48,820 bases of DNA from Minisyncoccota bacterium (lineage in GTDB: Bacteria > Patescibacteriota > Minisyncoccia > Minisyncoccales > GWA2-38-27): positions 73,521 through 122,340 of the forward strand of contig JAQTZP010000003.1 of NCBI GenBank assembly GCA_028687715.1. Direction: 5' to 3'. A model generated the notes under the pieces. That model was not told the origin of the DNA, did not search any database, and saw only the letters and a program-made list of their open reading frames with translations. The first letter of the stretch is position 1. Every line of letters starts with the position of its first letter. Positions 1,057 to 39,377 of the stretch are shown here, piece by piece. A program made the translations under genes and the position numbers.

Positions 1057-1653
1057 TTATTTTTTAATAGACGCAATCTTCATTACGTCATATATGTAAT
1101 AAATTCCTGAAACAGCTCCTATTATTCCAGTAAGAATAGAGAGAGATATTGAGAAGTTAAAAAAGCTGTATGAAGTACTGAGCATTATAGCCGGGAAAGA
1201 AACTCCTTGAAGAGAAGTGGTAAGCTTCCCTATAAATCTTACTTCAGGAACTCCTGTTTTCATAAATAAAGCAATTAATACCATCGGAAAGCTTATTATC
1301 TCTCTTGAAAGGATGAAAAATACCTCAAAGATATTGTTTCTTGATAGAATTCCAGAAGCAGTGAACTTTATCAAGAATGAGAAAGCGGTTCCAATCAATA
1401 AAATCCTGTCAGCTATCATATCAAACTGCCTGCCAAACTCAGTCTTTATCTTGAATTTTCTGGCTGCTATCCCGTCAAAGAAATCAGTAAGCATTCCTAT
1501 TATAAATAATAAAACGATATAAATGATGTTAAAACCAGAAAAAATAAGGTAAGAGATAACAAAAGTGATTATTACTCTTGAAAAGGTTAAAATATTAGCT
1601 AAGTTCAAGATATTTGTTTTCTTCATCTCATCAATCATATTATTTTTATTCAT
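1057..1653 (-). CDS. CDP-alcohol phosphatidyltransferase family protein (PgsA-like)
   Basis: Carries the signature D-x2-DG-x2-AR-x8-G-x3-D-x3-D as DFFDGIAARKFKIKTEFGRQFDMIADR, plus multiple TM helices. I chose the internal ATG (MNKNNMIDEM, 1653) because the longer ORF to 1740 would overlap the upstream gene by ~95 nt. With 1653 the overlap with the upstream stop is 8 nt. Confidence 0.8.
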   Translation of the reverse strand: MNKNNMIDEMKKTNILNLANILTFSRVIITFVISYLIFSGFNIIYIVLLFIIGMLTDFFDGIAARKFKIKTEFGRQFDMIADRILLIGTAFSFLIKFTASGILSRNNIFEVFFILSREIISFPMVLIALFMKTGVPEVRFIGKLTTSLQGVSFPAIMLSTSYSFFNFSISLSILTGIIGAVSGIYYIYDVMKIASIKK

Positions 1654-2650
1654 AGCTTTTTTTAATAAGCCAATACATAACCCCAATAAACCCAAGCCAT
1701 AATAAGACCCAGAGATACCAGGTTTTAACAAGCCAGACAAAGAAGGATTGTTTGGACTCAGAAGGCTCTAAGGTCAGCTTTAAGGCATCAGAGCTTTTAA
1801 AGTCTTCTATCCTTATATCAGATAATATCTCTTTATCTGTTTTGGATTTAATGTCTTTTGAGGCTTCTATATCAAGTGTTATTCTCTTTTCTGAATTAGA
1901 AGATACATACCCTATATTTATCTCTTGAGAGATATCCTGTTCTATTTGATTATCTGCTATCTTTATAATCCCCTTGTATCCAATCTCTTTGGGAAGCTCT
2001 AGTTTAAGGTAGACATTGTCTATATCTTCTGACTTATTGTTTAAAACTATTATTAGTATCTCTGCTTTTTCACCTGATTTTAAGCTTAGAGATTCCTGCC
2101 ATTGAGAGAGATCTGATTCTTTCTTTGCGAATATGGATACAGATACGTCTATTTCCCTGCAGTCTTGAGGGCAGGTTGTTTCATCTTCATCGCAGTTGCA
2201 GATATTATCAGGGCAGTGCTGCTCGTTATTGCAGTAGTCTGTGGAGGAGCCGTCATCGGGGGGAAGCTCAGGCTGAGACGGAGGCTGAGGCTGAGGAGGC
2301 TGGGGCTGAGGATTGCAGGTCTCATCGTCTATACAGCTGTAAAGGCATTCACCGCCCGAACAATACCAGCTTGGTCTCTGGGTATTTGAGCAATTTTCAT
2401 AACCGCAGGAATTATCTATCAAGCAGGATATAGGTTCAGACCACTCAAAACAAGGGTCATCATCATAGTTTTCCCCGCAAATCTGCTTCTGGGTGCTTGA
2501 AGCGCATCTTTTCTGGCCGATAAAAGAGCATTCATCATAGCAGAGAGCAGAAACATCTATCATAAGGAAAAAGCTTAGAATAAAGATAAAGATGAGATTT
2601 AAGGCTAAAAACCCTTTGTTAATTTCTAACATTTTAGAACCTATAATCAT
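1646..2650 (-). CDS. cysteine-rich repeat surface protein, paralog 4 (1 module, Pro/Gln linker, C-terminal TM anchor)
   Basis: 334 aa with an N-terminal hydrophobic signal/anchor. It has one Cys-rich module (CYDECSFIGQKRC..QICGENYDDDPCFEWSEPISC..NSCGYENCSNTQRPSWYCSGGECLYSCIDDETC) followed by a PQPQPPQPQPPSQPELPP linker. The C-terminal ~195 aa are essentially identical to those of 6120-7868. Confidence 0.85.
   Translation of the reverse strand: MIIGSKMLEINKGFLALNLIFIFILSFFLMIDVSALCYDECSFIGQKRCASSTQKQICGENYDDDPCFEWSEPISCLIDNSCGYENCSNTQRPSWYCSGGECLYSCIDDETCNPQPQPPQPQPPSQPELPPDDGSSTDYCNNEQHCPDNICNCDEDETTCPQDCREIDVSVSIFAKKESDLSQWQESLSLKSGEKAEILIIVLNNKSEDIDNVYLKLELPKEIGYKGIIKIADNQIEQDISQEINIGYVSSNSEKRITLDIEASKDIKSKTDKEILSDIRIEDFKSSDALKLTLEPSESKQSFFVWLVKTWYLWVLLWLGFIGVMYWLIKKSYE
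1670..2265 (-). repeat. 596-bp near-identical dispersed repeat, copy 1 (3' coding end of paralog 4)
   Basis: Direct comparison with 6144-6739 at a constant offset of 4474 nt. I saw one mismatch (a/g near 1685/6159). Identity stops abruptly at 2265/6739. Confidence 0.9.
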
Positions 2651-2655
2651 TAAAG

Positions 2656-5358
2656 TTATTCAGATTTTTTAAATAATTGATAAAATAGAAAGGCTAAAAC
2701 TAATAATATCAGTATCAAAAGATAATACCATTTCTTTATAAATCCCCAAACGCCTTCATCTTTTTTCATCTCTTCAATAGCAACGTTCATAGAATCAGAA
2801 CTTAAAAAGTCAGCTACCCTAGCGCTGCCGATAAGCTCTATCTTGGTGTTTAAAACAGCATTTGGAGAAACCTCTCCTTTGAAAGTAATTCTCTTTTCTG
2901 AGTTGGCCGACAAAAACCCTATATTTATCCCCTCTGTAATATCGCCCTCTATCTGGCTGTCTCCAATCTTTAACTCTCCTTTATAAATTATTTCCTTGGG
3001 AATATCTGCTTTTACAATGACGTTATCAAAATCTTCAGTAGTATTATTTAAAACAGACAATAAAATATCTACTTTCTCTCTCAGCCCCAGACCAATATCT
3101 TTTTTCCATTCCAAGGGATCCTGTTCTCTTTTTCCGTAAAGAAGGATATTTAGACTTAAAGAGCCGCAGTCATTGGGACAGCTGTTGTTATTCTCTCCGC
3201 AATTGCACATGCCGTCCCCGCAATGGTTTTGTTTCTGACAATAATCAGAAGAATCTCCTCCTTTCTTTGCGACACAGCTTGAATCGCTGACGCAGTTATA
3301 ACTGCAGGTTCCGTTAAAACAATACCAGCTCGGTCTTTGGCTGTCAGGACAAACTCCGTATCCGCAGGAAATATCTCCTGTGCAAGCCTGATTTGCGCCC
3401 CATTCCAAGCAGGAATCCGTATCGTAATTTCCGCAGGTCTGTTTATTATTGCCTGAACAGCGGGTTTGTCCGCTTGGAGAGCATTCGCTGACGCAGGAAG
3501 AAGGAGGGAAGGCGCAGGTTGAATCCTCGACACAATTATACAGACAGCTCCCTCCTAAGCAGTACCAGCTGGGCTTCTGGGAGTCTGAACAATTCCCGTA
3601 TCCGCAGGAAGTATCGCCGACACAGGAAATAGTATTGCCCCATTCCAGACAGGAATCAGCGTCATAATTGCCGCAGGTCTGCTTATTTGAACCCAAACAT
3701 CTTAGAATCCCTGATTGAGAACATTCATTAACGCATAAGGTACCGCAGGTTGAATCACTTACGCATCTGTAATAGCAGGCTCCTGAAGAACAATACCATT
3801 GAGGTTTTTGGCTGTCAGAGCATGTTCCGTAGCCGCAGTAAGTATCTCCTGCGCATAAATCAGGCAAAGACCACTCAAGACAGGTATCTGAATCATAGTT
3901 TCCGCAAACTTGCCTGTGGCCGTCATCAGAACATCTAGTTTGGCCAGAAGAGCATTCTGAAGAACAGCTTTCATTACAGGTTGAATCATCAACGCAGGTA
4001 TAAGCGCAGCTGCTGCCCGAACAATACCAGCTTGGCCTTTGGCTGTCATTACAAGTTCCGTATCCGCAGGAAGTATCGCCGGTACAGGCTGTTGTATTGC
4101 CCCATTCCAGACAGGAATCAGCGTCATAATTGCCGCAGGTCTGTCTATTATTTCCGGAACACCTGGTAGCGCCTATTGTAGAACATTCATTTTCGCATGA
4201 AGGAGCACAAGTTGTATCATAATAACAGCTGTATAAACAAGTGCCTGAATCGCAAAGCCATCTTGGTCTTAATCCGGTAAAACAATCTGGTCCGCAGCCG
4301 CATCTTCCATAACCGCAGGAAGTATCACCAGTACAAAGTATGGGAGCTGACCACTCCAGGCATTCATCGCTGTCATAATTGCCGCAGGTCTGCTTATGAG
4401 TTTCGTCAGAGCATCTAATCTCAGTGGCAACGCATTCATTCTGGCAGGTTATAACGCAGCTCGGGTCATTAGTGCAATTATACGTACAGCTTTTTCCAGA
4501 ACAATACCATATCGGCTTTTCACTATCAGTGCAGGTTCCGTACCCGCAGGAAGCATTGCCGGTGCAAGTTATAGGGTCTCCCCACTCAAGTTCAGGATCA
4601 GAATCATAGTTCCCGCAGATTTGATATTTTGTATTATCAAAACACTTAGTATCGTTTAAAATAGAGCATTCTCCCTCTGAAGGAGTACTGCATAAAGCAT
4701 CGTAACTGCAGTCATAATAACACTCTGCCACATCTCCCATTTGAGAACAGCGCCAGGTAGGCTTTTCTAAATCAGAACAAGTTCCGTACCCGCAGGATGT
4801 ATCAGTCCCGCAGGGCTGAGATGGAGACCATTCCCAGCAGTCGTCATCATCATAGTTTCCGCAAGTCTGCTTATTGTAGCCGTCAACGCACCTTATTCCT
4901 CCGACAAAAACGCAATCATCTATGCATACGCCGTCATCTGGAGGGCTTGGACTGGAAGTCACTAAAACATTTAAAGAGATAATTTGAGAATATTCTTCCA
5001 GCCAGCCGTTAAAATACTTGCCTACAACTTGAGCTTGATAGGTATAAAAGCCGGGAGCGCTTTCAGTTATTACCCACTGCCTTTCTGTTTCAGCGCCGGA
5101 TACATTAACCCAGTGCCAGCTGCCCTGATAAGATTGTCCTATTCTATTTAACCCGTTGCAGTCTTTTCCTCTTATGGTGATTGTTATCGGTTCTCCAACC
5201 GCAACTGTTTGAGTGGGCGGAGAAACTGACCCGTAAATCTCAACAGCGTATTCTAAATTTGGAGAAGGAGGCGTACAAAGATATTCAGCAGAACAAAAAC
5301 TATCTGCGTAAAACAAAAGGATTAATAATGATAAGAATATAAGATTAGATTTTTTCAT
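2656..5358 (-). CDS. cysteine-rich repeat surface protein, paralog 3 (7 modules)
   Basis: 900 aa. Order of parts: signal peptide, ~100-aa beta-rich N-domain (VGEPITITIRGKDCNGLNRIGQSYQGSWHWVNVSG..PGFYTYQA), seven ~75-aa Cys-rich modules, a CGDGMCNCGENNNSCPNDC knot, a ~110-aa beta domain, then a C-terminal TM helix with tail KKSE. Confidence 0.9.
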   Translation of the reverse strand: MKKSNLIFLSLLILLFYADSFCSAEYLCTPPSPNLEYAVEIYGSVSPPTQTVAVGEPITITIRGKDCNGLNRIGQSYQGSWHWVNVSGAETERQWVITESAPGFYTYQAQVVGKYFNGWLEEYSQIISLNVLVTSSPSPPDDGVCIDDCVFVGGIRCVDGYNKQTCGNYDDDDCWEWSPSQPCGTDTSCGYGTCSDLEKPTWRCSQMGDVAECYYDCSYDALCSTPSEGECSILNDTKCFDNTKYQICGNYDSDPELEWGDPITCTGNASCGYGTCTDSEKPIWYCSGKSCTYNCTNDPSCVITCQNECVATEIRCSDETHKQTCGNYDSDECLEWSAPILCTGDTSCGYGRCGCGPDCFTGLRPRWLCDSGTCLYSCYYDTTCAPSCENECSTIGATRCSGNNRQTCGNYDADSCLEWGNTTACTGDTSCGYGTCNDSQRPSWYCSGSSCAYTCVDDSTCNESCSSECSSGQTRCSDDGHRQVCGNYDSDTCLEWSLPDLCAGDTYCGYGTCSDSQKPQWYCSSGACYYRCVSDSTCGTLCVNECSQSGILRCLGSNKQTCGNYDADSCLEWGNTISCVGDTSCGYGNCSDSQKPSWYCLGGSCLYNCVEDSTCAFPPSSCVSECSPSGQTRCSGNNKQTCGNYDTDSCLEWGANQACTGDISCGYGVCPDSQRPSWYCFNGTCSYNCVSDSSCVAKKGGDSSDYCQKQNHCGDGMCNCGENNNSCPNDCGSLSLNILLYGKREQDPLEWKKDIGLGLREKVDILLSVLNNTTEDFDNVIVKADIPKEIIYKGELKIGDSQIEGDITEGINIGFLSANSEKRITFKGEVSPNAVLNTKIELIGSARVADFLSSDSMNVAIEEMKKDEGVWGFIKKWYYLLILILLVLAFLFYQLFKKSE
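3260..4925 (-). repeat. in-frame tandem coding repeats, period ~230-250 nt (seven Cys-rich modules)
   Basis: The landmark ccgcag(g/a)tctg (encoding Q(T/I)CGNY on the minus strand) recurs near 3433, 3671, 3900, 4131, 4381, 4610 and 4858. The protein repeats are clearly visible in the translation. Confidence 0.8.
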
Positions 5359-6115
5359 ATTTTTTAAAGAAAAAATAAATAATAAATATAGTTAATGAAA
5401 ATAGAATAAAATACCAGTAATTAGTCAAGAAGCTAAATATATCTATTTTTTCTTTGCAGTCTGAAGGACAGGTGTTTTTATCTTCATTAGAATCGCAGAT
5501 ATTATTACCGCATTTAGAATAAAGAGATTCTGATGATTTATTCTGATTCTCACAGCTTGAATCATTGATGCAGTGGTATTTACATTCTCCTTCAGCGCAG
5601 TACCAGTTTGGTTTCTGATTATCCCTGCAGTCTCCGTAACCGCAGGAAGTATCACCGGTGCATAATTCATCATCGCTCCATTTTATACAAGGGCTGTCAT
5701 CTTTTAACTCGCAGACCTGCTTATTTCTATTGTCAGAACAGCGGGCCTCTCCAATATTAAAACATTGATCTCTGCAGACATCAACGCTTAGGCATCTTTC
5801 TACATAATCTGAACCGTTGTTAATATGAGCGCAGTACCTGTAAACAGCTGGAAGACTTTCTGTAAATGTCCAGCTCTTTTGAGCGTAGAGGTCAGAAACA
5901 TTATCCCAGTGCCAGACTCCTTGATAGTAAGCACCGATTTTTATCAAAGGTTTTGAACAATCAGGGCAATAGCCTCTGACATTTATTGTTATCGGCATGC
6001 CTATCTTAACCTCCAAAGGAACCACTTCAAAACTCATTGACATCTTAGCAGAACAGATATCTGATATAAAGAATAAAGATATTATTAAAAATAGAATTAA
6101 ATTATTAAGCTTCAT
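5345..6115 (-). CDS. cysteine-rich repeat surface protein, paralog 2 (1 module)
   Basis: 256 aa with a signal peptide and the same N-domain (GMPITINVRGYC..IKIGAYYQGVWHWDNVS..PAVYRYCA). It has one module (CRDQCFNIGEARCSDNRNKQVCELKDDSPCIKWSDDELCTGDTSCGYGDCRDNQKPNWYCAEGECKYHCINDSSC), a CGNNICDSNEDKNTCPSDC knot and a C-terminal TM helix. Its stop overlaps the start of 2656-5358 by 14 nt. Confidence 0.85.
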   Translation of the reverse strand: MKLNNLILFLIISLFFISDICSAKMSMSFEVVPLEVKIGMPITINVRGYCPDCSKPLIKIGAYYQGVWHWDNVSDLYAQKSWTFTESLPAVYRYCAHINNGSDYVERCLSVDVCRDQCFNIGEARCSDNRNKQVCELKDDSPCIKWSDDELCTGDTSCGYGDCRDNQKPNWYCAEGECKYHCINDSSCENQNKSSESLYSKCGNNICDSNEDKNTCPSDCKEKIDIFSFLTNYWYFILFSLTIFIIYFFFKKYEKI

Positions 6116-6119
6116 AATT

Positions 6120-7868
6120 CTATTCTTTGCTTCTTCTTAACATCCAATACATAACCCCGATAAACCCAAGCCATAATAAGACCCAGAGATACCAGGTTTT
6201 AACAAGCCAGACAAAGAAGGATTGTTTGGACTCAGAAGGCTCTAAGGTCAGCTTTAAGGCATCAGAGCTTTTAAAGTCTTCTATCCTTATATCAGATAAT
6301 ATCTCTTTATCTGTTTTGGATTTAATGTCTTTTGAGGCTTCTATATCAAGTGTTATTCTCTTTTCTGAATTAGAAGATACATACCCTATATTTATCTCTT
6401 GAGAGATATCCTGTTCTATTTGATTATCTGCTATCTTTATAATCCCCTTGTATCCAATCTCTTTGGGAAGCTCTAGTTTAAGGTAGACATTGTCTATATC
6501 TTCTGACTTATTGTTTAAAACTATTATTAGTATCTCTGCTTTTTCACCTGATTTTAAGCTTAGAGATTCCTGCCATTGAGAGAGATCTGATTCTTTCTTT
6601 GCGAATATGGATACAGATACGTCTATTTCCCTGCAGTCTTGAGGGCAGGTTGTTTCATCTTCATCGCAGTTGCAGATATTATCAGGGCAGTGCTGCTCGT
6701 TATTGCAGTAGTCTGTGGAGGAGCCGTCATCGGGGGGAACGTATCCGCAGGAAACGCTGTTCTGACAGCTGTATTTGCATTCTCCATTAGAGCAATACCA
6801 GCTCGGCTTCTGAACATCGCTGCAGATTCCATAGCCGCAGGAGGTATCACCAGCACATACCTCATCCTGGCCCCATTCCAGACAAGAATCAGCATCATAA
6901 TTGCCGCAGGTCTGAAGCTTTCCCCCGCTGCATCTTGTCAGGCCGCTCACAGAACACTCATTAGCGCATAAAGGGGCGCAGATTGAATCAGCTACGCATT
7001 CATAGACACAGTTTCCCTGAAAACAATACCAACTGGGCTTTTGGCTTTTATCGCAGTCCCCGTAGCCGCAGGAAGTGTCACCAACGCAGCTCTGAAGTTC
7101 AGTCTTCCACTCAAGACAATCATTTTCATTTCTGTCGCAGATTAACCTGTAATTTCGGTCATAACACTTAGTTTCTCCCTCCCTAAAGCACTTATTATTT
7201 GTATCGCAAGCCTGCAAAGGACTTCCCGGGACACAGCTGTAGCTACAGCTGTTATTGGAACAGCGCCATAAAGGGACATAATAAGAAATGCCTCCGCTTG
7301 AAGGACAAGACCAGATAGAGCCGATGCTCCCGCAAATTATAGGATTTGACCATTCAAGACACAAATCGGTGTCATAGTTGCCGCATCTTTGATAATACTT
7401 ATCATCATAGCATCTAACTTGAAAGTAAACTTCAGAACATTCATTGGTGCAGCTTGAACCTAAAACAGTTAAATCCAAGCACCTTTCCTGGGACTGCTCC
7501 TCGGTTCTATCCAGCAAAAAGCCGATTGCCTTAGCGCAGTAGCTGTAAGTTCCTGGAGAATTTTCAATTACGGTCCATGTCCTTGAAGCAATTGTTCCAG
7601 ACACGCTTTCAAAATGCCAGCTGCCCTTGTAAAAAGCTCCTATTTTCGAAAGTCCGTCCTTATCTTTTCCTGTGACTGTGATAACAACAGGCTCTCCGGG
7701 ATTTACAAACTTCTTACTTAAAGAAAATTCAACGTAAGTTTCATCGTTAGCGGCATAACAATATGAGATATAAAAAAAGCTGGCAATTAAAAAACAGCTG
7801 AATAAAAGAATTCTAAAAGTTCTTTTTAAACAAAGAATGTTTTCTCCTGTCAGATATTCTATTTTCAC
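6120..7868 (-). CDS. cysteine-rich repeat surface protein, paralog 1 (3 modules, first degenerate)
   Basis: 582 aa starting at GTG (revcomp of cac at 7866-7868). It has a signal/anchor, the N-domain (GEPVVITVTGKDKDGLSKIGAFYKGSWHFESVSG..PGTYSYCA) and three Cys-rich modules. The C-terminal block is shared with 1646-2650. Confidence 0.85.
   Translation of the reverse strand: MKIEYLTGENILCLKRTFRILLFSCFLIASFFYISYCYAANDETYVEFSLSKKFVNPGEPVVITVTGKDKDGLSKIGAFYKGSWHFESVSGTIASRTWTVIENSPGTYSYCAKAIGFLLDRTEEQSQERCLDLTVLGSSCTNECSEVYFQVRCYDDKYYQRCGNYDTDLCLEWSNPIICGSIGSIWSCPSSGGISYYVPLWRCSNNSCSYSCVPGSPLQACDTNNKCFREGETKCYDRNYRLICDRNENDCLEWKTELQSCVGDTSCGYGDCDKSQKPSWYCFQGNCVYECVADSICAPLCANECSVSGLTRCSGGKLQTCGNYDADSCLEWGQDEVCAGDTSCGYGICSDVQKPSWYCSNGECKYSCQNSVSCGYVPPDDGSSTDYCNNEQHCPDNICNCDEDETTCPQDCREIDVSVSIFAKKESDLSQWQESLSLKSGEKAEILIIVLNNKSEDIDNVYLKLELPKEIGYKGIIKIADNQIEQDISQEINIGYVSSNSEKRITLDIEASKDIKSKTDKEILSDIRIEDFKSSDALKLTLEPSESKQSFFVWLVKTWYLWVLLWLGFIGVMYWMLRRSKE
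6144..6739 (-). repeat. 596-bp near-identical dispersed repeat, copy 2 (3' coding end of paralog 1)
   Basis: Partner of 1670-2265; see that entry. Confidence 0.9.
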
Positions 7869-7943
7869 GTTAAATGATATTAACTTGTTATTATGATTAT
7901 TATAACATTATAAAGATAAATTAGAAGTTAATAAAGATATAAG

Positions 7944-7975
7944 AAAAAATCCCACCTGATTTGGTGAGATTTTTC
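7944..7975 (-). terminator. Rho-independent terminator downstream of the SIMPL gene
   Basis: The minus strand reads aaaaatctcacc-aaatc-aggtgggattttttc: a ~10-bp stem with one mismatch followed by a T-run, about 20 nt after the stop at 7997. Confidence 0.6.
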
Positions 7976-7996: not shown

Positions 7997-8830
7997 CTAT
8001 TCTATCTCATAAACAATGCTAACATTTGAGCTTATTTTGCTTTCTCCTGTTTCAATATCAGGAGCAGGAACCGCTCCTCCAAGTCCGTAACTTGAATCCT
8101 TTACTGCTTCAAGACCATAGCTGTAAAAAGGAGGGACATAGCTGTCTTCCTGGAAATTAACAATCTTTACTAATTTTATTCCTAAAGCTGAAGCAAGCTC
8201 GTTTGCCTTATTCTTAGCATTTTCAATTGCTTGAGTCCGCGCTTGATTCTTGAATTCATCTTCTTTATCAATTTTAAAATAGAGGCTTCCGACTTCATTT
8301 GAACCGGCAGCTGCTGCCTTTTCAATAACCTTTCCTATATTCTCCATATTTCTGATTTTTACTTCAATCTGCTGGAATACTTCATAGCCTGTTAGAACTC
8401 TTTTGCCCGGAGGATAAGGATAGATTTCTATTTCTACTCTTTGGTATTCATAGCGGGGATAGATGCTAAAAGATACTGTCTTTATATCTTTGTCCTCTAT
8501 GCCTTCTCCTTTTACGGCTTCAATTACTTTATTCATCTTCTGGGTGTTTTCCTCTATTGCTTTATCCACGGCAGCTCCTTCTGTTCTTACTGAAAAATCA
8601 ACTACTGCTAAATCAGGCTTGGCATATACCTCGCCCTTGCCTGTTATTGTAATTGTGTCTCTCATTCCTGCCTGACGGCCCAAATACTTTCCTTCTTTTA
8701 TCTTATTGGGAATCTCAATTAAAGCAGAAACTGTTATAACGGCTAGAAAGACGCATAAAACTATTATTAAAATAAAGATGGGACTCTTATGTTTTTCTTT
8801 TATTTCGCTTAGAAGATTTTGATTGTCCAT
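7997..8830 (-). CDS. SIMPL/DUF541 domain protein (periplasmic immunogenic protein-like), N-terminal TM anchor
   Basis: 277 aa. ITITGKGEVYAKPDLAVVDFSV..KMNKVIEAVK..GIEDKDIKTVSFSIYPRYEY and the C-terminal ..SSNVSIVYEIE are typical of the SIMPL family. Confidence 0.75.
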   Translation of the reverse strand: MDNQNLLSEIKEKHKSPIFILIIVLCVFLAVITVSALIEIPNKIKEGKYLGRQAGMRDTITITGKGEVYAKPDLAVVDFSVRTEGAAVDKAIEENTQKMNKVIEAVKGEGIEDKDIKTVSFSIYPRYEYQRVEIEIYPYPPGKRVLTGYEVFQQIEVKIRNMENIGKVIEKAAAAGSNEVGSLYFKIDKEDEFKNQARTQAIENAKNKANELASALGIKLVKIVNFQEDSYVPPFYSYGLEAVKDSSYGLGGAVPAPDIETGESKISSNVSIVYEIE

Positions 8831-15125: not shown

Positions 15126-15683
15126 TTACTCGGTGAATTTAAAAGTAGAGAGCATCTGGTTTAAAACATTATCTTGTTCAACAAAATTACGTTCATCTGG
15201 TTTATAAATTATTTTAGGGAAAAGTTTATAAGCAATTCCATCACGGATAGCGCAATATTGCACCTCGTCATAAGGTTCACATTTTAATCCGCAGCCAATT
15301 CCTTTAAATGTAATTCCACCTAAAGAAATATCCTGAGCATCTGCGCTCCAAGCGGTTTTATAACATTCGTCAGATTGAGCTCCTGTTACTACTTCTATAT
15401 TAAGTTGTCTTTGTCCATCTGCAAAAATAAAAGAAATACTTTTATCAAGTTCTTTTATTTGAGTGCCGATTAGATATTCTATTGAGAATCTGTAATTAAC
15501 GTTTGTGTATGTCTTCCAGTCAGATGTCTGATCTATTTCGGTATTTGAGGTTTTTGTTGGTTCTTGATTTAGAACATAGTAATACTGATAAGCTAAAGTT
15601 ATCCCAGCTACTATTACAGCTAAGACTAAGATAATTCCTATTGCTAAAGGAGTAGATATTCCTTTGTTTAGATAAGATTTCAT
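15126..15683 (-). CDS. secreted/anchored hypothetical protein with conserved KG-ISTPL N-terminal cassette (family member 1)
   Basis: 185 aa. The N-terminal 34 aa MKSYLNKGISTPLAIGIILVLAVIVAGITLAYQY are identical to those of 16287-17123 and 28259-29392. The C-terminus ends NQMLSTFKFTE. Confidence 0.75.
   Translation of the reverse strand: MKSYLNKGISTPLAIGIILVLAVIVAGITLAYQYYYVLNQEPTKTSNTEIDQTSDWKTYTNVNYRFSIEYLIGTQIKELDKSISFIFADGQRQLNIEVVTGAQSDECYKTAWSADAQDISLGGITFKGIGCGLKCEPYDEVQYCAIRDGIAYKLFPKIIYKPDERNFVEQDNVLNQMLSTFKFTE
15581..15683 (-). repeat. 103-nt 5' coding cassette, copy 1
   Basis: Identical over 103 nt to 17021-17123 and shows 2 mismatches to 29290-29392. The ~6 nt upstream of the ATG (aaacat) are also shared. 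Confidence 0.9.
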
Positions 15684-16286: not shown

Positions 16287-17123
16287 TTACGGAGTATTAA
16301 ATAACTCAATCGTAGAAACTATCTTATCAAAGGTATTATACCAGATCTCAGCTTCTGTTTCAGAAGATATAATTCCATTGGCTAAATCGTTATAAAATTG
16401 ATTTTGATTAGCCCAGATTAAGCTGTCACCGCAACTTTCTTGGTTAGTTTCAAAATATTGCGGCAATTCAGTTTTAATCTTATTTATCGCCCATGCCTGA
16501 AGACTTACAACGATTTTATAGCTATTTTTAAAGAATATGAGTTCTCTTGTTGGAAGTACATTGCAAATATCAATCTGACCCAAGGTCGTAAATTCTTTAC
16601 CCCATATCTTGTCGTCAATTTTTACCACCTTTTGTGATGCTTTCAGAGAAAATGGAGGCGAGTATCCAAATTGTCCATTTTTCAAACTTTCTTCATCTTG
16701 TAAAGCTATTTCCTTAGTATATCCAAGTATAGAAGGAGGATATTCATCACTCATATCGCTTATTTTTTCTCTATCAATACTAAAAACTAAATAATCTGAT
16801 TTAAACCCCCAAGTATTTGGCGGCAGTCCAGCTGCAGATACCGCTGGCAAAATAATTCTTGTAATATTCTCACTTATTTTATTTGCGCTTACTTGTTCTG
16901 CTTTTAAGTCAGGAGGATATTTTAAAGAATAGCCAACTTTATCATCTGTAAAAACCTTCCAATCTGCAAATTCATCTTTTTGAGTTTCTTCAAGTTCGAT
17001 CTCTGCCTTAGGAACCCACCAATACTGATAAGCTAAAGTTATCCCAGCTACTATTACAGCTAAGACTAAGATAATTCCTATTGCTAAAGGAGTAGATATT
17101 CCTTTGTTTAGATAAGATTTCAT
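16287..17123 (-). CDS. secreted/anchored hypothetical protein with conserved KG-ISTPL N-terminal cassette (family member 2)
   Basis: 278 aa with the same 34-aa N-terminus. It ends FDKIVSTIELFNTP, equivalent to the ..LSTFKF motif of the paralogs. Confidence 0.75.
   Translation of the reverse strand: MKSYLNKGISTPLAIGIILVLAVIVAGITLAYQYWWVPKAEIELEETQKDEFADWKVFTDDKVGYSLKYPPDLKAEQVSANKISENITRIILPAVSAAGLPPNTWGFKSDYLVFSIDREKISDMSDEYPPSILGYTKEIALQDEESLKNGQFGYSPPFSLKASQKVVKIDDKIWGKEFTTLGQIDICNVLPTRELIFFKNSYKIVVSLQAWAINKIKTELPQYFETNQESCGDSLIWANQNQFYNDLANGIISSETEAEIWYNTFDKIVSTIELFNTP
17021..17123 (-). repeat. 103-nt 5' coding cassette, copy 2
   Basis: See 15581-15683. Confidence 0.9.
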
Positions 17124-17152: not shown

Positions 17153-20100
17153 TTATTTAAAAATAAACTCTTTAACTCTTTTAATAAACTCATTAACAGC
17201 AGTAAAGATACTTGCGAATTGATTCTCTAAGTTATTTAACTCTACTGTCTGATTAGGCTTTTCAATAAACCCATAAGTGGGAACATTTTTAACGCCGTAA
17301 ACCTGAATCTCATTTACATGCCTCCAGTCTCTTCCTGACGATGCCTCTATGGTAATCTTTCTTACTTTAGCTTCATAAGGAAGCTTTTCTGAAAAGGGAA
17401 TGCTGTTTGCTGAGTTATAGGGACGAGATAAAACCGTATTGCCTGATGAGTCATAAAAATAAATGGTTCCAGAATTGCCTCCATTTGTTCCCTGGCACAT
17501 TATTGAATAACCAGAGACCCAGTATTCATCCATTAAATCAATATACAAGTGGGCTTTGCCGGTATTAGTGTCTGAAGTATCTCCGTATCCTTCTGCGCTC
17601 CACCAGGTAGAATTATTGCCGTCTACTGCATATTTAGGACTTTCAGGCTTTCCGTAATCAGAGGCAGCTGGCTTGTTCAAAGCTATGTTAATATTGTAAG
17701 ACTTGTAATCATTCTTTATCTCTTCTGCCGTTAAACCATAATTATATAATTTAACCTCATCTATTAACCCATCAAAGTAATTGCTTCCTATGAGTCCTCC
17801 TATGGTTAAAGATGAACCTTTATCAGTATATGAGTAGTATTGGGTAAGTGTTTGGGAATATGCTCCGTCTATATAGATATGCCAAGCCTTAGAAGTATTA
17901 ATATTAACTGCCACTATATCATATTTATGCCAGTTAGTGTCTATAGCAGTATTAGTGCTTCTGGTTGAGACAAGCTTGTATCCTCCATCAGAGCTTGTAA
18001 ATATGCTCCATTTATCAGTTGAAGCAGGAATATATACAGCCCACATTCTCTTGTTTGTGGCATAATCCCACATAGAGATGGGATAGGAGTTAATAGCATA
18101 ATCACTCTTGTTTGATTTGGCCCAGAAGCTGATGGTCATTATGTCTGAATATAATGAGGGGTGGTATGGGATCTTTACATAATCATCTATTCCATCAAGC
18201 TTTATTGCTTTGCCTGATTTGCCTTCTGTATATTCTGGATTCCCAGAGGCTGTTCCGTGGTTTGAACCAGAAGAATCTTGGGTGTTGTTTTCGAATTTGT
18301 AGTGAGAGACTAAAGAAGAGCCTAAAATTGTAAAGGGCATCTCATTGCTTTTTCCTCCTGAAGGCGTAGTAACGCTTATGTATTTTATCTCTGGCTTTGC
18401 ATCAGCTGAAATTATATACCTGGCGCTCATTTCTGTATCAGAGATTTCCCCGCATAACTCAAGCTTAAAATCTTTATCAAGCAAAGGAGAAAGTCCGCAG
18501 CCATTAAGAGAACCTGCTCCTTTGAAATTCTCTCCCCTTATCGTAATATCCACCATTGTTCCTTGTTTTGCCTCTGATGGCGAAATACCTATTATTTTTG
18601 GCTGTTTAGTAGGACCTGCCGAAGCCTTAGTTAATCTGCCTGCTTGTATGCCTCCTCTAAATATTATATCGGCATGGTTATAAGGACCATAGTTAGAATC
18701 TCCCTTAATAATTCCCCAGCTGATGTTATTGGGCGAATCGTCTATAAGGGATAGTTGAATAGAATCCCCTTCATCTTCAAATTGTTCCATATTTCCATAA
18801 ACATATATTTTCCTGACTTCATAATCGGGAATAATAATGCCGTTTTGCTCAAAATTAAAGGTAATAGTACCGGTTACTATTCCTCCTGCCAAATGAACGT
18901 TTCCTTCTGTTGAATCAAGCGTTTGACCATTCTCGTCTTTAAGGGTAAAACTTAATGGCTGATAATCTGTATCTCTAACACGACCTTCTACATCTATTGT
19001 TATAAGGCTATTCAATAATTTATCAAAAATGATGCTATCTCCTTTACCTCCTGCCTCTATACCGATAGCCACCCCCCTGTTTGCTATATTAAAAACAGCT
19101 AAAAGAGTATCTTTAGCAGGGATAAAATCACCGCTTGGCGAATCAGCGCTTTTTGAGAGATAAGGTCTAGTACTGTATACATACATTAAATCAGCGCTGG
19201 CAGTATCATTTGAGTCTACTGATCTCCCAGATGTTATTTTAGTTGCTTCAACTTTAGAAATAGAGACTTGGATAGAAGTTCCGTTCTTCACGATATCGTT
19301 ATCAGTATATTTAACAATGCCGGCTATTGTAATTACCTTACTTTCATTAACAGGAATAGTAAGGGCATTATTCTCAAAACTAACAGAAACGTAATCATCG
19401 GAAGAATAAATCGATTCTAATAATTTATTCCCGTCATAGAAAAATAATCTATCAATAGCTAAACTATTTAATACATTCAATTGAATCTTATCTAAATCCA
19501 ATGCTTCATCAGAATTATTAGAAATATTAAATTGTCCTAAAATAGCATAATATCCTCCCATTATTATATCGCTTAAAGGTGAAGAACTGTCTGTTTTAAC
19601 AGATAAGCTATGCTCAATATCAACACAGGTCCCATTGTAGCAGGCTTTGCCTTCAGGACAAGAACCGCAATTAATCTGATTTCCGCAGCCATCATCCCAA
19701 CTTCCGCATTCTTTGTTTAACTCTAAACATGTTTTAGAATAACAGAAGCCTTCATAATCTTCTTTAATTTTTTCTGCTGTTAAACCATAATTATATAACT
19801 TTACCTCATCTATTAATCCATCAAAGTAATTGCTTCCTATAAGTCCTCCTATGGTTAAAGATGAACCTTTGTCAGTATATGAGTAGTATTGGGTTAATCT
19901 TTGTAAGTAAGAACCGTCAATGTAGAAATCCCAGGTCTTGTTAGTATTGTTTACAACTATATCGTATTTATGCCAGTTAGTGTCTATAGCAGTATTAGTG
20001 CTTCTGGTTGAGACAAGCTTGTATCCTCCATCAGAGCTTGTAAATATGCTCCATTTATCAGTTGAAGCAGGAATATATACAGCCCACATTCTCTTGTTAG

Positions 20101-23100
20101 TGGCATAATCCCACATAGAGATGGGATAGGAGTTAATAGCATAATCACTCTTGTTTGATTTGGCCCAGAAGCTGATGGTCATTGTATCTGAATATAATGA
20201 GGGGTTGTATGGGATCTTTACATAATCATCTATTCCATCAAGCTTTATTGCTTTGCCTGATTTCCCTTCTGTATACTCTGGATTCCCAGAGGCTGTTCCG
20301 TGGTTTGAACCAGAAGAGTCTTGGGTGTTGTTTTCGAATTTGTAGTGAGAGACTAAATTACTGGTATATCTTCCGGTGCGCTGATTATCATGCATAAAAC
20401 TAGGCCAAGTAATATTTTTGCTTTTATACTCTCCATCTAGTTCCCATACATATATACTATTTCTTAATTTACTTTTTACGAAATCACGATCACCATCAGA
20501 ACTTGCAATTAATTCTAATTTTCCATCATTATCAATATCAGCTATTACAGCAGGAGCTTCAGCCCAAATTTCTGCATATTTTGGAAAACCATTTACTTCA
20601 GTTCCATTAAAATTCCAAGCATAAACATCAGTCCCAGTAGTTGTTAAAATATCTAAAAGATTATCATTATTTATATCTCCCATAATAGATGAATAATAAC
20701 TGTCCCATCCAGTATATTCAGGCCATCCATTTAATAAAGTTCCATCATGGTGAATTAGATACGTGCTATAACCTAATTGATTAACTGCAATCTCTAAATC
20801 CCCATCGTTATCGATATCGCCCAATGAAGGAGTAGACCAAAATAGCTCACCTTTTCGAAAAGGAAATCCAGGAAGAATATTACCGTTTCTATCAAAAGCA
20901 TAAAGTCCTCCGTATCTCGGATCATACCCTACATTGCTTGAATATAATAACCCGACAACAATATCTTCCTTTCCATTATTGTCAATATCAGCGACCACTG
21001 GAGAAGAAAAAATCTCTCCTGGCACCAGACGCGGCCACCCAGATACTATGGAGCCGTCTAAGTTATAAACATAAATTATTCCTTCATTTATCCATTCATT
21101 CTTGCTGTAATCAAAACCTGCTTTTTCAGAAGGACCTGCTGAAACAATTTCTAATTCTGGATCATTATCAAAATTACCTACTGCAGGAGAAGAAACTATC
21201 GCTGCACCAAAGGTAATGGGAGGTAAATTCCATTGAGAAATTATATTGCCATTTTTATTAACAATAACCATTTTTTCGCTTTTAGCGTCATTGCCTTTAA
21301 ATACAATCTCTTTGTTGCCATCTAAATTCAAATCAGCCATAAGCATTGTTGGTTTTAATTCCTCTGAAGGCATTGAGGCAGACCACAATAAAGAACCATC
21401 ATGATTATAGACATATAATCTTCTTTGCGTATAATTATATTCAATAATCTCATCATAGCCATCATTATCAATATCTCCCACTAAAGGAATAGGGATATTT
21501 AGGCCTGTCAGATATTCATTGTTAGCGCCAAATACAGCCTTCCATAATAAGTCTCCTTTATGATTATAAACAAGAATTTCAGGCTTTCCTCCTTTCGCTA
21601 CAATTATTTCTTTATAGCCGTCTTTATTAATATCCGCTGCAACCGGTTCAAGAAAACCTGCCCAATGATAATTTGTACTGTAGTAGTCTGTTAAATTAAT
21701 ATTTTTAGATTCATCAACTTTTATTGTATTTACACTATTTGAATTATTAATTCCATTTTTATTATTGGAAATTAAAGTAAAAAATTTAGAATTAGTCAGT
21801 ACCTGACTTCCAAACTGTTGGTTGTAAAAATCATAATTAACATATTGAGGCCAGCCTTTTTTTAATGTAGGATCTAAATGAATATAATCTATATATTTTA
21901 AAAAAAATGTGTTATCATTTTTAATTAAAGTTAACTTTATCTTATAATAACCAGCAGTAGTTATTTTTGAAGTATCCCAACTAGCCAAAACGCCTTCAAT
22001 AATAGGTTTTGTCCCTCCGTCTATAAGGGTTATTCCTTCAGAACTCCAGACTGAATAAGATATATTTTCATATTCAATTTTATAATTCTTAAAATTAGGA
22101 CCTGGTGCAGTTCCTCTTATTTGGATTATATCTCCCGCCCTAAAAACATCATTGTTTAAAGGAAAAATTAACTTAGGAGCTAAATCCAAAGTTATATTTG
22201 AAGTTGTAGTTTTTTCCGAGGTAATAATTACCTTTGTAGTTTTATCTAAATAATCTTCTTTTGTTACTTTCAAATCCCTCATCCCTGGAAGCAGTTCGGT
22301 TAATAAAGGAGTTTTTCCCAGATAAACAAATTTTCCTGTATCTAAATGTTTAACAAAAACATTGGCATCTGAGGGCTTAGAGGTTATAGATAATTTTCCC
22401 GTATTTAAATAATCTATCTCTAAAGCCTTATTTATATTCACCCTTCCAGCGCCGATATAATATCTATCTTCATTTGAGGCATCAACGCCTTCTTTTAAAA
22501 TCATTTCTACCTGGTTAACCGTCCAATTAGACTTTTTAGATAAGATTAATCCAGCTAATCCAGCAACATAAGGCGTTGCCATTGAAGTACCAGATAACTT
22601 CCAGTAGCCATTAGCAACTTTCGAAAAAGGATTCTTAATCGCTATTTGACTGTCGTCTTTCATTGTTGAGATAATATCTACTCCAGGAGCAGCAACATCG
22701 GTTAAGTAGCCGAAACTGGAAAACCATGCCCTTTTATCCTGCGAGCTGGTAGCTGCCACAGAAATAACGCCGTCATAACACGCCGGATAAAGTACAGATT
22801 CGTAACTATCGTTTCCTGCAGCAGCAACTAATACTACATTTTTACTATACGCATAATCTACAGCGTCTCTTATTGTATCCGAATCATCATACCCTCCAAA
22901 ACTCATGCTTATCACATTAGCCCCATTGTCTGCGGCATAATATATTGCATTGGCAATCTCAGAATCTGCTAAGCCCGCTGCCCTCAAAGACATAATTCTA
23001 CAATTATGACAAACCCCTGCTATTCCCTTTCCATTATTTGAAACTCCTGCGGCAATACCCGCGCAATGAGTTCCATGGCCATACTCATCCATTGGATTAT

Positions 23101-23839
23101 TATCTTCTCCTAAACAATCATCTATGCAATAACTTTGCCTGGAAGTATTTGTAAAGTCCCACCCCATAATATCGTCTATATATCCATTATTATCATCATC
23201 AACTCCATTATTTTGAATTTCGTCTCCATTAGTCCAAATATTATTTATTAAATCTTCATGCTGCCAATCAACCCCTGTATCTATTATCGCGATTACAATA
23301 TTGATATTTCCTTTTTCAATATCCCAACCAAACTCTGCTTTTGTAATCTGATGAGCCCATTGTTGAGAATATAAGGTATCATTTGGGGTAAAAAGAGTAT
23401 TGTAAGTATAATTAGGTTGGGCATATTCAACATTCAAATCTTTTTGAAGCTCTTTTACAATATTTAAAGTGTCAGAAGAATTAACTTCTATTAAAACTAC
23501 TTTATTTAAGTTTACTTTTTTTGTTTTCTCAAAAATTCTTTTGAAACTTTTAGCTTTATACTTATCTAAAACCTGATTGATTGATTTTTTATTTGTCTGA
23601 ATTAAGGCACCGGAATAAGACTCCTGCACTGCTTTTTTGCTGATAAGTATATCTTCTTTGAATTTGACTATTATCTGGCCTTCAATATATTCTTTTTTTG
23701 ATTCTTTAACCTCAGTTATATTACTAGATGTCTGCCCTTGCGTAATAACCGCTTTCACATCTAAAATACCCATAGTTAATAAATAAAAAGAAACTACTAA
23801 AAAAGCAGTAAATAAAAAAATAGGTTTGAGATTTTTCAT
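17153..23839 (-). CDS. giant secreted multidomain protein: subtilisin-like S8 peptidase + FG-GAP/VCBS repeats + 2x LamG + IPT/TIG + F5/8 type C (discoidin)
   Basis: 2228 aa with a signal peptide. The S8 triad motifs are IIDTGVD, HGTHCAG and SGTSMATP. At least seven D.(D/N).(D/N)G..(E/D)I calcium-loop FG-GAP repeats are present (for example GDIDNDGYDEII, GDIDNDGDLEIAV, DIDNDGKLELIA). Two LamG-like blocks run from LVSHYKFENN to LIDEVKLYNYGLTAEE. An IPT-like block reads PKIIGISPSEAKQGTMVDITIRGENF. The C-terminal discoidin-like block reads NIALNKPA..YAVDGNNSTWWSAEG. Confidence 0.85.
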   Translation of the reverse strand: MKNLKPIFLFTAFLVVSFYLLTMGILDVKAVITQGQTSSNITEVKESKKEYIEGQIIVKFKEDILISKKAVQESYSGALIQTNKKSINQVLDKYKAKSFKRIFEKTKKVNLNKVVLIEVNSSDTLNIVKELQKDLNVEYAQPNYTYNTLFTPNDTLYSQQWAHQITKAEFGWDIEKGNINIVIAIIDTGVDWQHEDLINNIWTNGDEIQNNGVDDDNNGYIDDIMGWDFTNTSRQSYCIDDCLGEDNNPMDEYGHGTHCAGIAAGVSNNGKGIAGVCHNCRIMSLRAAGLADSEIANAIYYAADNGANVISMSFGGYDDSDTIRDAVDYAYSKNVVLVAAAGNDSYESVLYPACYDGVISVAATSSQDKRAWFSSFGYLTDVAAPGVDIISTMKDDSQIAIKNPFSKVANGYWKLSGTSMATPYVAGLAGLILSKKSNWTVNQVEMILKEGVDASNEDRYYIGAGRVNINKALEIDYLNTGKLSITSKPSDANVFVKHLDTGKFVYLGKTPLLTELLPGMRDLKVTKEDYLDKTTKVIITSEKTTTSNITLDLAPKLIFPLNNDVFRAGDIIQIRGTAPGPNFKNYKIEYENISYSVWSSEGITLIDGGTKPIIEGVLASWDTSKITTAGYYKIKLTLIKNDNTFFLKYIDYIHLDPTLKKGWPQYVNYDFYNQQFGSQVLTNSKFFTLISNNKNGINNSNSVNTIKVDESKNINLTDYYSTNYHWAGFLEPVAADINKDGYKEIIVAKGGKPEILVYNHKGDLLWKAVFGANNEYLTGLNIPIPLVGDIDNDGYDEIIEYNYTQRRLYVYNHDGSLLWSASMPSEELKPTMLMADLNLDGNKEIVFKGNDAKSEKMVIVNKNGNIISQWNLPPITFGAAIVSSPAVGNFDNDPELEIVSAGPSEKAGFDYSKNEWINEGIIYVYNLDGSIVSGWPRLVPGEIFSSPVVADIDNNGKEDIVVGLLYSSNVGYDPRYGGLYAFDRNGNILPGFPFRKGELFWSTPSLGDIDNDGDLEIAVNQLGYSTYLIHHDGTLLNGWPEYTGWDSYYSSIMGDINNDNLLDILTTTGTDVYAWNFNGTEVNGFPKYAEIWAEAPAVIADIDNDGKLELIASSDGDRDFVKSKLRNSIYVWELDGEYKSKNITWPSFMHDNQRTGRYTSNLVSHYKFENNTQDSSGSNHGTASGNPEYTEGKSGKAIKLDGIDDYVKIPYNPSLYSDTMTISFWAKSNKSDYAINSYPISMWDYATNKRMWAVYIPASTDKWSIFTSSDGGYKLVSTRSTNTAIDTNWHKYDIVVNNTNKTWDFYIDGSYLQRLTQYYSYTDKGSSLTIGGLIGSNYFDGLIDEVKLYNYGLTAEKIKEDYEGFCYSKTCLELNKECGSWDDGCGNQINCGSCPEGKACYNGTCVDIEHSLSVKTDSSSPLSDIIMGGYYAILGQFNISNNSDEALDLDKIQLNVLNSLAIDRLFFYDGNKLLESIYSSDDYVSVSFENNALTIPVNESKVITIAGIVKYTDNDIVKNGTSIQVSISKVEATKITSGRSVDSNDTASADLMYVYSTRPYLSKSADSPSGDFIPAKDTLLAVFNIANRGVAIGIEAGGKGDSIIFDKLLNSLITIDVEGRVRDTDYQPLSFTLKDENGQTLDSTEGNVHLAGGIVTGTITFNFEQNGIIIPDYEVRKIYVYGNMEQFEDEGDSIQLSLIDDSPNNISWGIIKGDSNYGPYNHADIIFRGGIQAGRLTKASAGPTKQPKIIGISPSEAKQGTMVDITIRGENFKGAGSLNGCGLSPLLDKDFKLELCGEISDTEMSARYIISADAKPEIKYISVTTPSGGKSNEMPFTILGSSLVSHYKFENNTQDSSGSNHGTASGNPEYTEGKSGKAIKLDGIDDYVKIPYHPSLYSDIMTISFWAKSNKSDYAINSYPISMWDYATNKRMWAVYIPASTDKWSIFTSSDGGYKLVSTRSTNTAIDTNWHKYDIVAVNINTSKAWHIYIDGAYSQTLTQYYSYTDKGSSLTIGGLIGSNYFDGLIDEVKLYNYGLTAEEIKNDYKSYNINIALNKPAASDYGKPESPKYAVDGNNSTWWSAEGYGDTSDTNTGKAHLYIDLMDEYWVSGYSIMCQGTNGGNSGTIYFYDSSGNTVLSRPYNSANSIPFSEKLPYEAKVRKITIEASSGRDWRHVNEIQVYGVKNVPTYGFIEKPNQTVELNNLENQFASIFTAVNEFIKRVKEFIFK
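17712..18313 (-). repeat. internal LamG-coding duplication, C-terminal copy
   Basis: Aligns with 19755-20356 at an offset of 2043 nt (in frame). The segment 17925-18313 has about 7 mismatches in ~385 nt by eye; the remainder is more diverged and has a 1-codon indel. Confidence 0.85.
19755..20356 (-). repeat. internal LamG-coding duplication, N-terminal copy
   Basis: Partner of 17712-18313. Confidence 0.85.
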
Positions 23840-26315: not shown

Positions 26316-26328
26316 CATTATAAATTTA

Positions 26329-39324: not shown

Positions 39325-39377
39325 GTTCAGGACCTAGTGGGAGCAATCTCGTGGAGGTGCAAATCCTCCTGCCCGCA
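39295..39377 (+). tRNA. tRNA-Leu (anticodon CAG), class II with long variable arm
   Basis: The acceptor stem is GCGGGCG/TGCCCGC plus discriminator A. GTGGCGGAA..AGACGCGCTAGGTTCAGGACCTAG closely parallels E. coli tRNA-Leu(CAG). The anticodon loop is TTCAGGA. The T arm is GGAGG-TGCAAAT-CCTCC; the loop reads TGC where TTC is usual. CCA is not encoded. Confidence 0.85.

Follow-up and report, generated by a model that had tools for sequence, protein, structure and literature searches.

Clustered cysteine-rich surface proteins have been a known feature of bacteria of the Candidate Phyla Radiation (CPR) since 2016, when extracellular proteins of this kind, with variation between strains and a proposed role in attachment, were reported from Peribacteria (PMC4736985). 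The four genes described here, g582, g256, g900 and g334, form an array in a stretch of 48,820 nt (hereafter the window) from an uncultured, ultra-small Minisyncoccota bacterium (GTDB lineage Bacteria; Patescibacteriota; Minisyncoccia; Minisyncoccales; GWA2-38-27), corresponding to positions 73,521-122,340 of the forward strand of contig JAQTZP010000003.1 in assembly GCA_028687715.1. Their products are built around a module of ~77 aa with twelve conserved cysteine columns. To our knowledge, host attachment and recognition by CPR bacteria (Patescibacteria) are largely obscure beyond type IV pili. We propose, with a probability of roughly 55%, that the four genes encode tandemly expanded type I membrane-anchored surface proteins of Patescibacteria, which would act as disulfide-stapled stalks for surface contact. 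The array itself would then be a lineage-specific tandem expansion.

Like the Peribacteria proteins (PMC4736985), the array belongs to a CPR genome, its products carry signal peptides and are rich in cysteine (5.4-10.3%, and ~7% in Peribacteria), and its four abutting paralogues are clustered. The Peribacteria proteins are likewise without functional annotation and variable between genomes, and they were proposed to serve in attachment or rigidity. However, they come from Peregrinibacteria and not from a Parcubacteria-type genome, they are much larger (~1,650 aa), and no domain was defined for them in that study; the likeness considered here is one of general traits. TIGR02232, a Myxococcus cysteine-rich repeat given as a weak match for the Peribacteria proteins (PMC4736985), also occurs in tandem in secreted proteins, but its NCBIfam model matched neither the window proteins nor 8 homologues, so the module does not belong to that family. 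What is new in the present locus is a defined 77-aa domain, confidently modelled and in its full form restricted to Patescibacteria, together with the link of its core to a repeat of DPANN archaea and Myxococcota, and the variable chromosomal slot in which the genes lie.

Surface proteins with DUF11 repeats, which include Chlamydia OmcB and archaeal surface proteins, are comparable in their cell-envelope context, and OmcB is also cysteine-rich; the membrane-proximal C-domain of the array is homologous to domains in family members that score above the DUF11 threshold. The array proteins differ in that they have a single putative DUF11 rather than a tandem series and the window's own copies score below threshold (14.9 bits); the 12-cysteine module, which is the dominant element here, is not known from DUF11 proteins elsewhere. 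Functional analogues are found in the variant-specific surface proteins of Giardia and the cysteine-rich region of the Entamoeba Gal/GalNAc lectin. These are also type I proteins with ~10% cysteine, a C-terminal transmembrane (TM) helix, a very short basic tail and multigene repertoires, but they are eukaryotic and CXXC-based, and show no detectable homology to the array.

Layout of the array

The four open reading frames (ORFs) are co-directional and tightly packed on the minus strand. In array order they are separated by a 4-nt gap (g582/g256), a 14-nt overlap (g256/g900) and a 5-nt gap (g900/g334). Four abutting genes of 582, 256, 900 and 334 aa with this spacing had been reported in the original prediction, which was made from the DNA letters, and the coordinates agree. 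The genes and their parts, all on the minus strand, are as follows.

g582, 6120..7868: 582 aa, GTG start, signal or anchor sequence at the N-terminus
g582 parts: N-domain 7455-7751; modules m1 7203-7454, m2 6975-7202 and m3 6744-6974
g582 parts, continued: knot 6633-6689; DUF11-like C-domain 6216-6632; TM helix and basic tail 6138-6215
g256, 5345..6115: 256 aa, signal peptide, without C-domain
g256 parts: N-domain 5783-6046; single module 5549-5782; knot 5456-5512; TM helix 5363-5434
g900, 2656..5358: 900 aa, 10.3% cysteine, signal peptide
g900 parts: N-domain 4930-5289; seven modules 3268-4929
g900 parts, continued: knot 3166-3222; DUF11-like C-domain 2755-3165; TM helix and tail 2662-2754
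g334, 1646..2650: 334 aa, signal or anchor sequence, without N-domain
g334 parts: module 2312-2545; PQ-rich linker 2266-2311, encoded by a (GCTGAG)n repeat
g334 parts, continued: knot 2159-2215; DUF11-like C-domain 1742-2158; TM helix 1661-1741

Thus, the N-domain is common to g582, g256 and g900, the C-domain is present in g582, g900 and g334, and the knot occurs in all four genes. Judged from hydropathy segments and the sequences themselves, each protein starts with a hydrophobic N-terminus and ends in a hydrophobic helix followed by a K/R-rich basic tail. Each therefore has the N-terminal signal, single C-terminal TM helix and positively charged cytoplasmic tail of a type I membrane-anchored surface protein. 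The earlier description had likewise assigned the N-domain and C-domain to three genes each and an N-terminal signal and TM helix to all, which can be seen in the sequences, and its view of the products as surface proteins fits the predicted topology. Cysteine makes up 7.7% of g582, 8.2% of g256 and 5.4% of g334. A profile hidden Markov model (HMM) of the module recognized 12 copies (3, 1, 7 and 1 in g582, g256, g900 and g334, respectively), each with an E value between 1e-24 and 1e-34, and thereby reproduced the anticipated counts exactly. No further module was detected when this HMM was run against the six-frame translation of the window.

An unnamed module with an apparently new predicted fold

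When the copies were aligned around their P.W.C motif, twelve conserved cysteine columns became apparent. The cysteine spacing had been called invariant; the twelve columns stand, but four copies depart from strict spacing. Specifically, g582 m1 is degenerate, with an insertion, a missing C8 and a displaced C12, while g900 m1 carries a 4-aa insertion, g900 m2 lacks C1 and C5, and g900 m3 has a 6-aa insertion with two extra cysteines. All twelve cysteines are kept in 76 of 89 distinct long modules, and the losses in this set are mainly paired (C1+C5 five times, C6+C10 three times and C8+C12 once). As the cysteines are lost in pairs, the pattern indicates that they probably form structural disulfides within the module. 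The copies in the window have a mean identity of 51%, with a younger cluster, consisting of g900 m4-m7 and g582 m3, at 65-73%.

Using the curated cut-offs of Pfam-A 2025 and NCBIfam 20.0, no match to the module was obtained in the four window proteins, nor in homologues of the long and short types described below (10 and 8 scanned), and the sub-threshold matches over the module were all spurious (CAF1A, Tobravirus_2B). A search of PDB sequences with the module profile gave no match at E<=10. PDB sequence searches with g582 and with a profile of the N-domain-plus-module cassette returned nothing significant; among the weak matches were scorpion toxins at E 0.08-0.35.

An AlphaFold2 model of the module, built on a 53-sequence alignment (A2), reached a predicted local distance difference test score (pLDDT) of 94.6 and a predicted template modelling score of 0.71. 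It shows four strands in two β-hairpins (residues 12-23 and 54-71) with long loops between them, and a model of the cassette independently recovered the same secondary structure. Comparison by Foldseek, which is weak for small domains with little secondary structure, identified no neighbour of this model in the PDB (best E 6.7, template modelling score 0.24, an Entamoeba lectin) or in BFVD (best E 0.9). Nor was there a PDB match at E<=0.001 to the known small disulfide-rich folds (EGF/laminin-EGF, LDLa, TNFR, Kazal/follistatin, granulin and hevein), the follistatin match having an E value of 9.5. The absence of Pfam-A, NCBIfam, PDB-sequence and fold matches upholds the claim that the module belongs to no named family. 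The module is a real, unnamed domain family, with an apparently new predicted fold. The locus thus offers a cleanly delimited, uncurated domain family that is ready for family definition and experimental structure determination.

Distribution of the module family

An exhaustive search of 1.84 billion cluster representatives with the module profile yielded 980 proteins at a threshold of E<=1e-3, of which 342 remained at E<=1e-10 and 80 at E<=1e-30; a word-indexed protein search with the same profile had given a misleadingly sparse picture, with 2 matches only. The homologues fall into two classes, one matching the whole 77-position profile, and a larger one matching positions 1-52 only, with up to 16 tandem copies per protein and E values down to 1e-92. 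Taxonomy was derived from the names of the sources and from scanning GTDB species representatives, the latter limited by exact-pattern seeding. By this measure, the full 77-aa module was found only in Patescibacteria metagenome-assembled genomes (MAGs), labelled Paceibacterota, Parcubacteria, Wildermuthbacteria or generically 'Saccharibacteria', and in the seeded scan in only ~20 loci. The ~50-aa core was found in DPANN archaea (Woese-, Pace-, Nano-, Aenigm- and Micrarchaeota) and in lipoproteins of Myxococcota/Bradymonadales. An occurrence of the long module in archaea was considered and rejected, as the DPANN alignments were low-scoring (30-40 bits) and differed in their second half.

Patescibacteria relatives typically carry a single gene, in which 1-6 long modules are combined with a knot, a DUF11 domain and a TM helix, and the architecture of module(s), knot, DUF11 and conserved WY.W TM helix recurs in Patescibacteria MAGs. 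In many homologues the N-domain lies directly upstream of the long module and forms a conserved cassette with it. This conserved architecture, with the full form restricted to Patescibacteria, makes the proteins a possible surface or contact factor. The assignment of the window to a CPR-type genome, which had been proposed, agrees with all full-module homologues being from Patescibacteria and with the best named matches of its arginyl-tRNA synthetase (~60-63% identity to Nealsonbacteria, Parcubacteria and Pacebacteria), which are CPR.

The ~50-aa repeat of Myxococcota/Bradymonadales and DPANN resembles profile positions 1-52 (C..EC..G..C.....Q.CG.YD.D.CLEW....C..G..C..G.C), but lacks the second hairpin (SCGYG.C...QKP.WYC..G.C.Y.C..DS.C). 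Its partner domains also differ (PPC, PQQ propeller, PKD and LamG), as do its lipoprotein or other anchors. This repeat was likewise without a Pfam or NCBIfam model match in the homologues scanned. The DPANN proteins carry the same knot as the array (CG..IC..GE....CP.DC), which suggests that knot and core module travel together across two domains of life. One such surface protein, encoded at L027 7901-11038 (Woesearchaeota MAG JACQSR010000018.1), ends in a C-terminal TM helix and has, after a large N-terminal region, two short modules placed between a CGNSICETGETPQNCPGDC knot and a second knot. A more far-reaching and rather doubtful idea is that the ~50-aa core and the CG..IC..E....CP.DC knot represent an unrecognised disulfide-rich fold, a cell-contact building block swapped among ultra-small episymbionts (CPR and DPANN) and predators that depend on contact (Myxococcota/Bradymonadales); the 77-aa form, with its 12 copies in what would be a hot-spot locus, would then be the host-recognition apparatus of the organism. 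That predatory Myxococcota share the core with CPR and DPANN may reflect a common set of surface components.

N-domain, knot, C-domain and membrane anchor

The N-domain was modelled as an eight-strand β-sandwich with a pLDDT above 90. Its Foldseek matches were Sec63/Brr2 immunoglobulin (Ig)-like, PKD, CARDB and macroglobulin domains (E 1e-4 to 1e-2), with TMt values of 0.70 against PKD (4xed) and 0.56 against CARDB (2kl6). No Pfam match was found for the N-domain, and its best PDB sequence match was a bacterial Ig domain at E 0.031. On the basis of the model, the N-domain is predicted to be an Ig-like β-sandwich. The archaeal fusexin Fsx1 (7p4l), which was the top Foldseek match of the N-domain-plus-module cassette (E 4e-5), was rejected because the template modelling score was 0.32 with a root-mean-square deviation of 8.6 Å, because the match was no better than that of the Ig domain alone, and because the class II three-domain architecture was absent.

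In the array, the knot follows the pattern C[GP][DN].[IM]C...E....CP.DC and holds 4-6 cysteines. It had been described with a CG(D/N) start; its presence in all four genes holds, but that start fails in g582 and g334, where the knot reads CPDNICNC... The knot was modelled with low confidence (pLDDT 44-60), as there was no alignment depth in this part.

The C-domain is β-rich and comprises ~135 aa. That of g900 matched DUF11 (PF01345) with 14.9 bits and E 0.034, the Pfam cut-off being 24.6 bits, whereas the equivalently placed domain of P0163, P0158, P0059, P0174 and P0073 scored 25.9-31.9 bits, above the cut-off. A C-domain HMM connects these passing domains with the window copies. Because the equivalent domains in five homologues pass the cut-off, the C-domain is treated here as a putative divergent DUF11.

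Across the family, the sequence of the TM segment is conserved to an unusual degree ([KR]WY[IFL]W..LLW....Y[WL]..[KR][KR]) and was seen in g582, g334 and g900 as well as in P0003, P0005, P0026, P0156 and P0138. The C-termini contain no LPXTG, PEP or PGF motif and match no NCBIfam CTERM model for sortase, exosortase or archaeosortase signals. The conserved anchor might be an unrecognised sorting or oligomerisation signal.

Probable recombination within the array

A direct repeat of 625 bp links g334 and g582 as follows.

Repeat copy A, 1641..2265, minus strand: 3' half of g334 (linker, knot, C-domain and TM helix)
Repeat copy B, 6115..6739, minus strand: 3' half of g582

The two copies differ by 11 mismatches, all of which lie in the last ~45 nt (cytoplasmic tail and stop codon), while the remaining 580 bp (1686-2265 and 6160-6739) are perfectly identical. 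A repeat of 596 bp had been noted before, and 1670-2265 indeed recurs with one mismatch, but the full repeat is longer and its perfect part shorter. Apart from this tract, DNA identity between the module copies amounts to 62-80%. The 580-bp identity between g582 and g334 indicates a probable recent gene conversion or duplication, in line with the tandem paralogy and gene conversion that had been claimed. An imperfect (GCTGAG)n hexanucleotide at 2266-2312 directly adjoins the boundary of the identical tract. The protein junction at this boundary reads PPDDG, a sequence also present in g900 between the N-domain and module 1, and PPDDG may be a recombination junction.

The hexanucleotide in the g334 linker was the only in-frame simple repeat. 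No inverted repeats of >=60 nt and no simple-sequence or invertible element suggestive of switching were found in the window. A reverse transcriptase was not noticed among the window proteins scanned, which did not include every window ORF. Within this scope, the array lacks the features of a contingency or phase-variable locus, or of a locus of the diversity-generating retroelement type.

The GC content at the third codon position is mildly raised in the array (0.34-0.42, versus 0.25-0.33) in a window with a GC content of ~33%, and the GC excess is mostly at codon position 2, reflecting the Cys, Gly and Ser content. A foreign origin was not adopted on this basis, the mild rise at position 3 not being decisive. 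A viral origin was also rejected, as no homologues were found in IMG/VR or BFVD.

A variable chromosomal slot

The array is flanked by the following features.

SIMPL (PF04402) gene, 7997..8830, minus strand: upstream flank and conserved anchor of the slot
CDP-alcohol phosphatidyltransferase (CDP-OH) gene, 1057..1740, minus strand: downstream flank
SdpI gene, 394-1050: after the CDP-OH gene
Strong terminator-like hairpin, 7944..7975, minus strand: 13-bp stem and T run, just downstream of SIMPL
TATAAT -10-like box, 7899..7904, minus strand: ~30 nt upstream of the g582 GTG start

The slot varies in gene content between relatives, with four genes in the window, two in L001 and none in L085. In L001 (JGI), the genes between SIMPL and CDP-OH encode a 1332-aa protein with 12 full modules and an 829-aa protein with 7, both without an N-domain; the L001 flanking genes are 50% and 44% identical to those of the window. 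L085 has SIMPL, a 24-nt gap, CDP-OH and SdpI, and no array, while L020 has one gene with an N-domain, a module and DUF11 between SIMPL and SdpI, among unrelated genes. The variable copy number that had been postulated is thus borne out by related genomes. The array was also said to be fast-evolving, for which no support was obtained: between the window and L001 the array proteins share 38-40% identity, a divergence comparable with the 44-50% of the flanking genes, the modules are old, and no switching element was found. Gene and module number vary, and not the sequence at an unusual rate. The slot represents a natural case of such variation (0, 2 or 4 genes) together with a very recent recombination tract.

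A new transcription unit probably begins after the hairpin behind SIMPL. In L085, where no array is present, a GT(T)ATAATAATC motif nearly identical to that of the window stands ahead of the CDP-OH gene, and this suggests that the array may have entered the locus between the downstream operon and its promoter. Transcription of the array thus probably starts at a promoter which, in relatives, serves the CDP-OH transferase and SdpI. The listed TTG start of the CDP-OH ORF overlaps g334 by 95 nt (1646-1740), and the ATG at 1653 or 1638 is more likely to be the better start. With either start, the array and the downstream genes appear to be packed as one operon.

Proposed stalks for surface contact and rival explanations

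In the favoured reading, each protein would be exported by its N-terminal Sec-type signal. Going outward from the membrane, the predicted order is a basic cytoplasmic tail, a TM helix, a divergent DUF11, a knot of 4-6 cysteines and one to seven modules, with an Ig-like β-sandwich at the distal tip in three of the four proteins. Topology and domain order are strongly predicted, as is the disulfide pairing, and the variability of the locus is observed directly. The disulfide-stapled modules would form rigid, protease-resistant stalks of varying length, which would push the tip domain or the modules beyond the cell wall, toward a host cell or substrate. That the stalks are rigid, reach beyond the wall and adhere is inferred, in part from published work on the surface proteins and disulfide machinery of CPR bacteria: CPR bacteria have MdbA/VKOR-type machinery for extracytoplasmic disulfides (bioRxiv 10.1101/335083), and in Paceibacteria parasitic on methanogens, secreted Ig-like and PKD proteins have been put forward as factors for adhesion to the host (PMC10936435). 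By the same reasoning, the proteins may serve as adhesins or in host contact. Unequal recombination or gene conversion between repeated segments would alter gene number, module number and domain combinations, with the 580-bp identical tract as the latest such event.

Several points weigh against this reading. No recognised adhesin or carbohydrate-binding domain was detected in the array proteins, and the Ig-like tip is missing from g334 and from both L001 proteins, which means that it is not essential to the family. The predicted models cover a single module and the one-module cassette, the rod-like geometry being extrapolated from these, and the putative disulfide map rests on co-loss for three of the six presumed pairs. 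The array diverges to a similar extent as its housekeeping flanks, and a mean module identity of 51% together with the lack of a phase-variation signature would fit a structural role in the envelope equally well. That role is the main rival, with the proteins serving purely as membrane-anchored stalks or spacers that hold an S-layer or wall and with module number setting the spacing, as archaeal SlaB-type stalk proteins might do by analogy. The TM motif and the membrane-proximal knot and DUF11 are kept across many Patescibacteria, most relatives have one gene of this architecture, and the flank-like divergence agrees with such a function. Against this, the slot is empty in at least one relative (L085), the seeded scan found the full module in only ~20 Patescibacteria loci, and no S-layer partner was identified in the window. 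A structural stalk is thus conceivable but not likely, and the other explanations are less likely.

A cysteine content of 5-10% is very high, and it could alternatively reflect extracellular thiol clusters that bind metals or perform sulfur or redox chemistry. Many hosts of the module family live in anoxic habitats, which would suit such a function. Moreover, small Cys-rich 'dark' domains of archaea are often interpreted as metal binders (PMC13607799). However, the even number of cysteines, their mainly paired loss, the absence of conserved His/Asp ligand patterns typical of metal sites, the signal peptide with a predicted extracytoplasmic location, and the disulfide-forming machinery of CPR bacteria all argue for disulfides, and we regard metal or redox chemistry as improbable. 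Small disulfide-rich repeats also often act as inhibitors, and the modules might be multi-headed protease inhibitors or toxins, displayed at the surface or released. A 2228-aa secreted subtilase is encoded 9 kb away, and the non-significant PDB sequence matches mentioned above were to scorpion toxins, but no sequence or fold match connects the module to any inhibitor or toxin family, the proteins are membrane-anchored without evident processing sites, and the conserved Cys, Trp, Tyr, Gly and Pro residues look like a structural core rather than a reactive loop; this explanation is highly improbable. Least credible is an assembly artefact, either a collapsed repeat or a chimeric join. The contig is metagenome-assembled and the 580-bp perfect repeat exceeds short-read length, yet the modules are otherwise divergent enough in DNA to assemble uniquely, and each copy of the repeat is bordered by unique sequence of its own, with differences between the two in the final 45 nt. 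In addition, as the repeats are direct, the linear order would be the only path that uses all segments, and the independent contig L001 has the same kind of locus in the same slot. Disulfide-stapled stalks for surface contact therefore remain our preferred interpretation of the array.

Other features of the window

The presence of a transfer-messenger RNA (tmRNA) confirms the bacterial origin of the window, which also encodes a single tRNA.

tmRNA, 25962-26318, plus strand: 154 bits
tRNA, 39295-39377, plus strand

Three otherwise different genes on the minus strand (15126-15683, 16287-17123 and 28259-29392) share a near-identical N-terminal signal-anchor of ~35 aa (MKSYLNKGISTPLAIGIILVLAVIVAGITLAYQY...), with 84-90% identity among the 146-nt DNA copies. 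A shared targeting or anchor cassette, or gene conversion at the 5' ends, could explain this. The gene for the 2228-aa secreted protein (17153-23839, minus strand), which contains subtilase S8, PEGA, FG-GAP repeats and LamG, has an internal repeat of ~500 bp (17706-18197 and 19755-20240) with 85-96% identity. Lastly, a 1305-aa protein with an InlB B-repeat, fn3 and PG_binding_1 is encoded at 44652-48569 on the minus strand, with a GC content of 42%. Its C-terminal ~65 aa recur at 48617-48820, with 95% DNA identity, as the C-terminus of the next upstream gene, so that the window holds a further pair of tandem paralogues with a homogenised 3' end in common.

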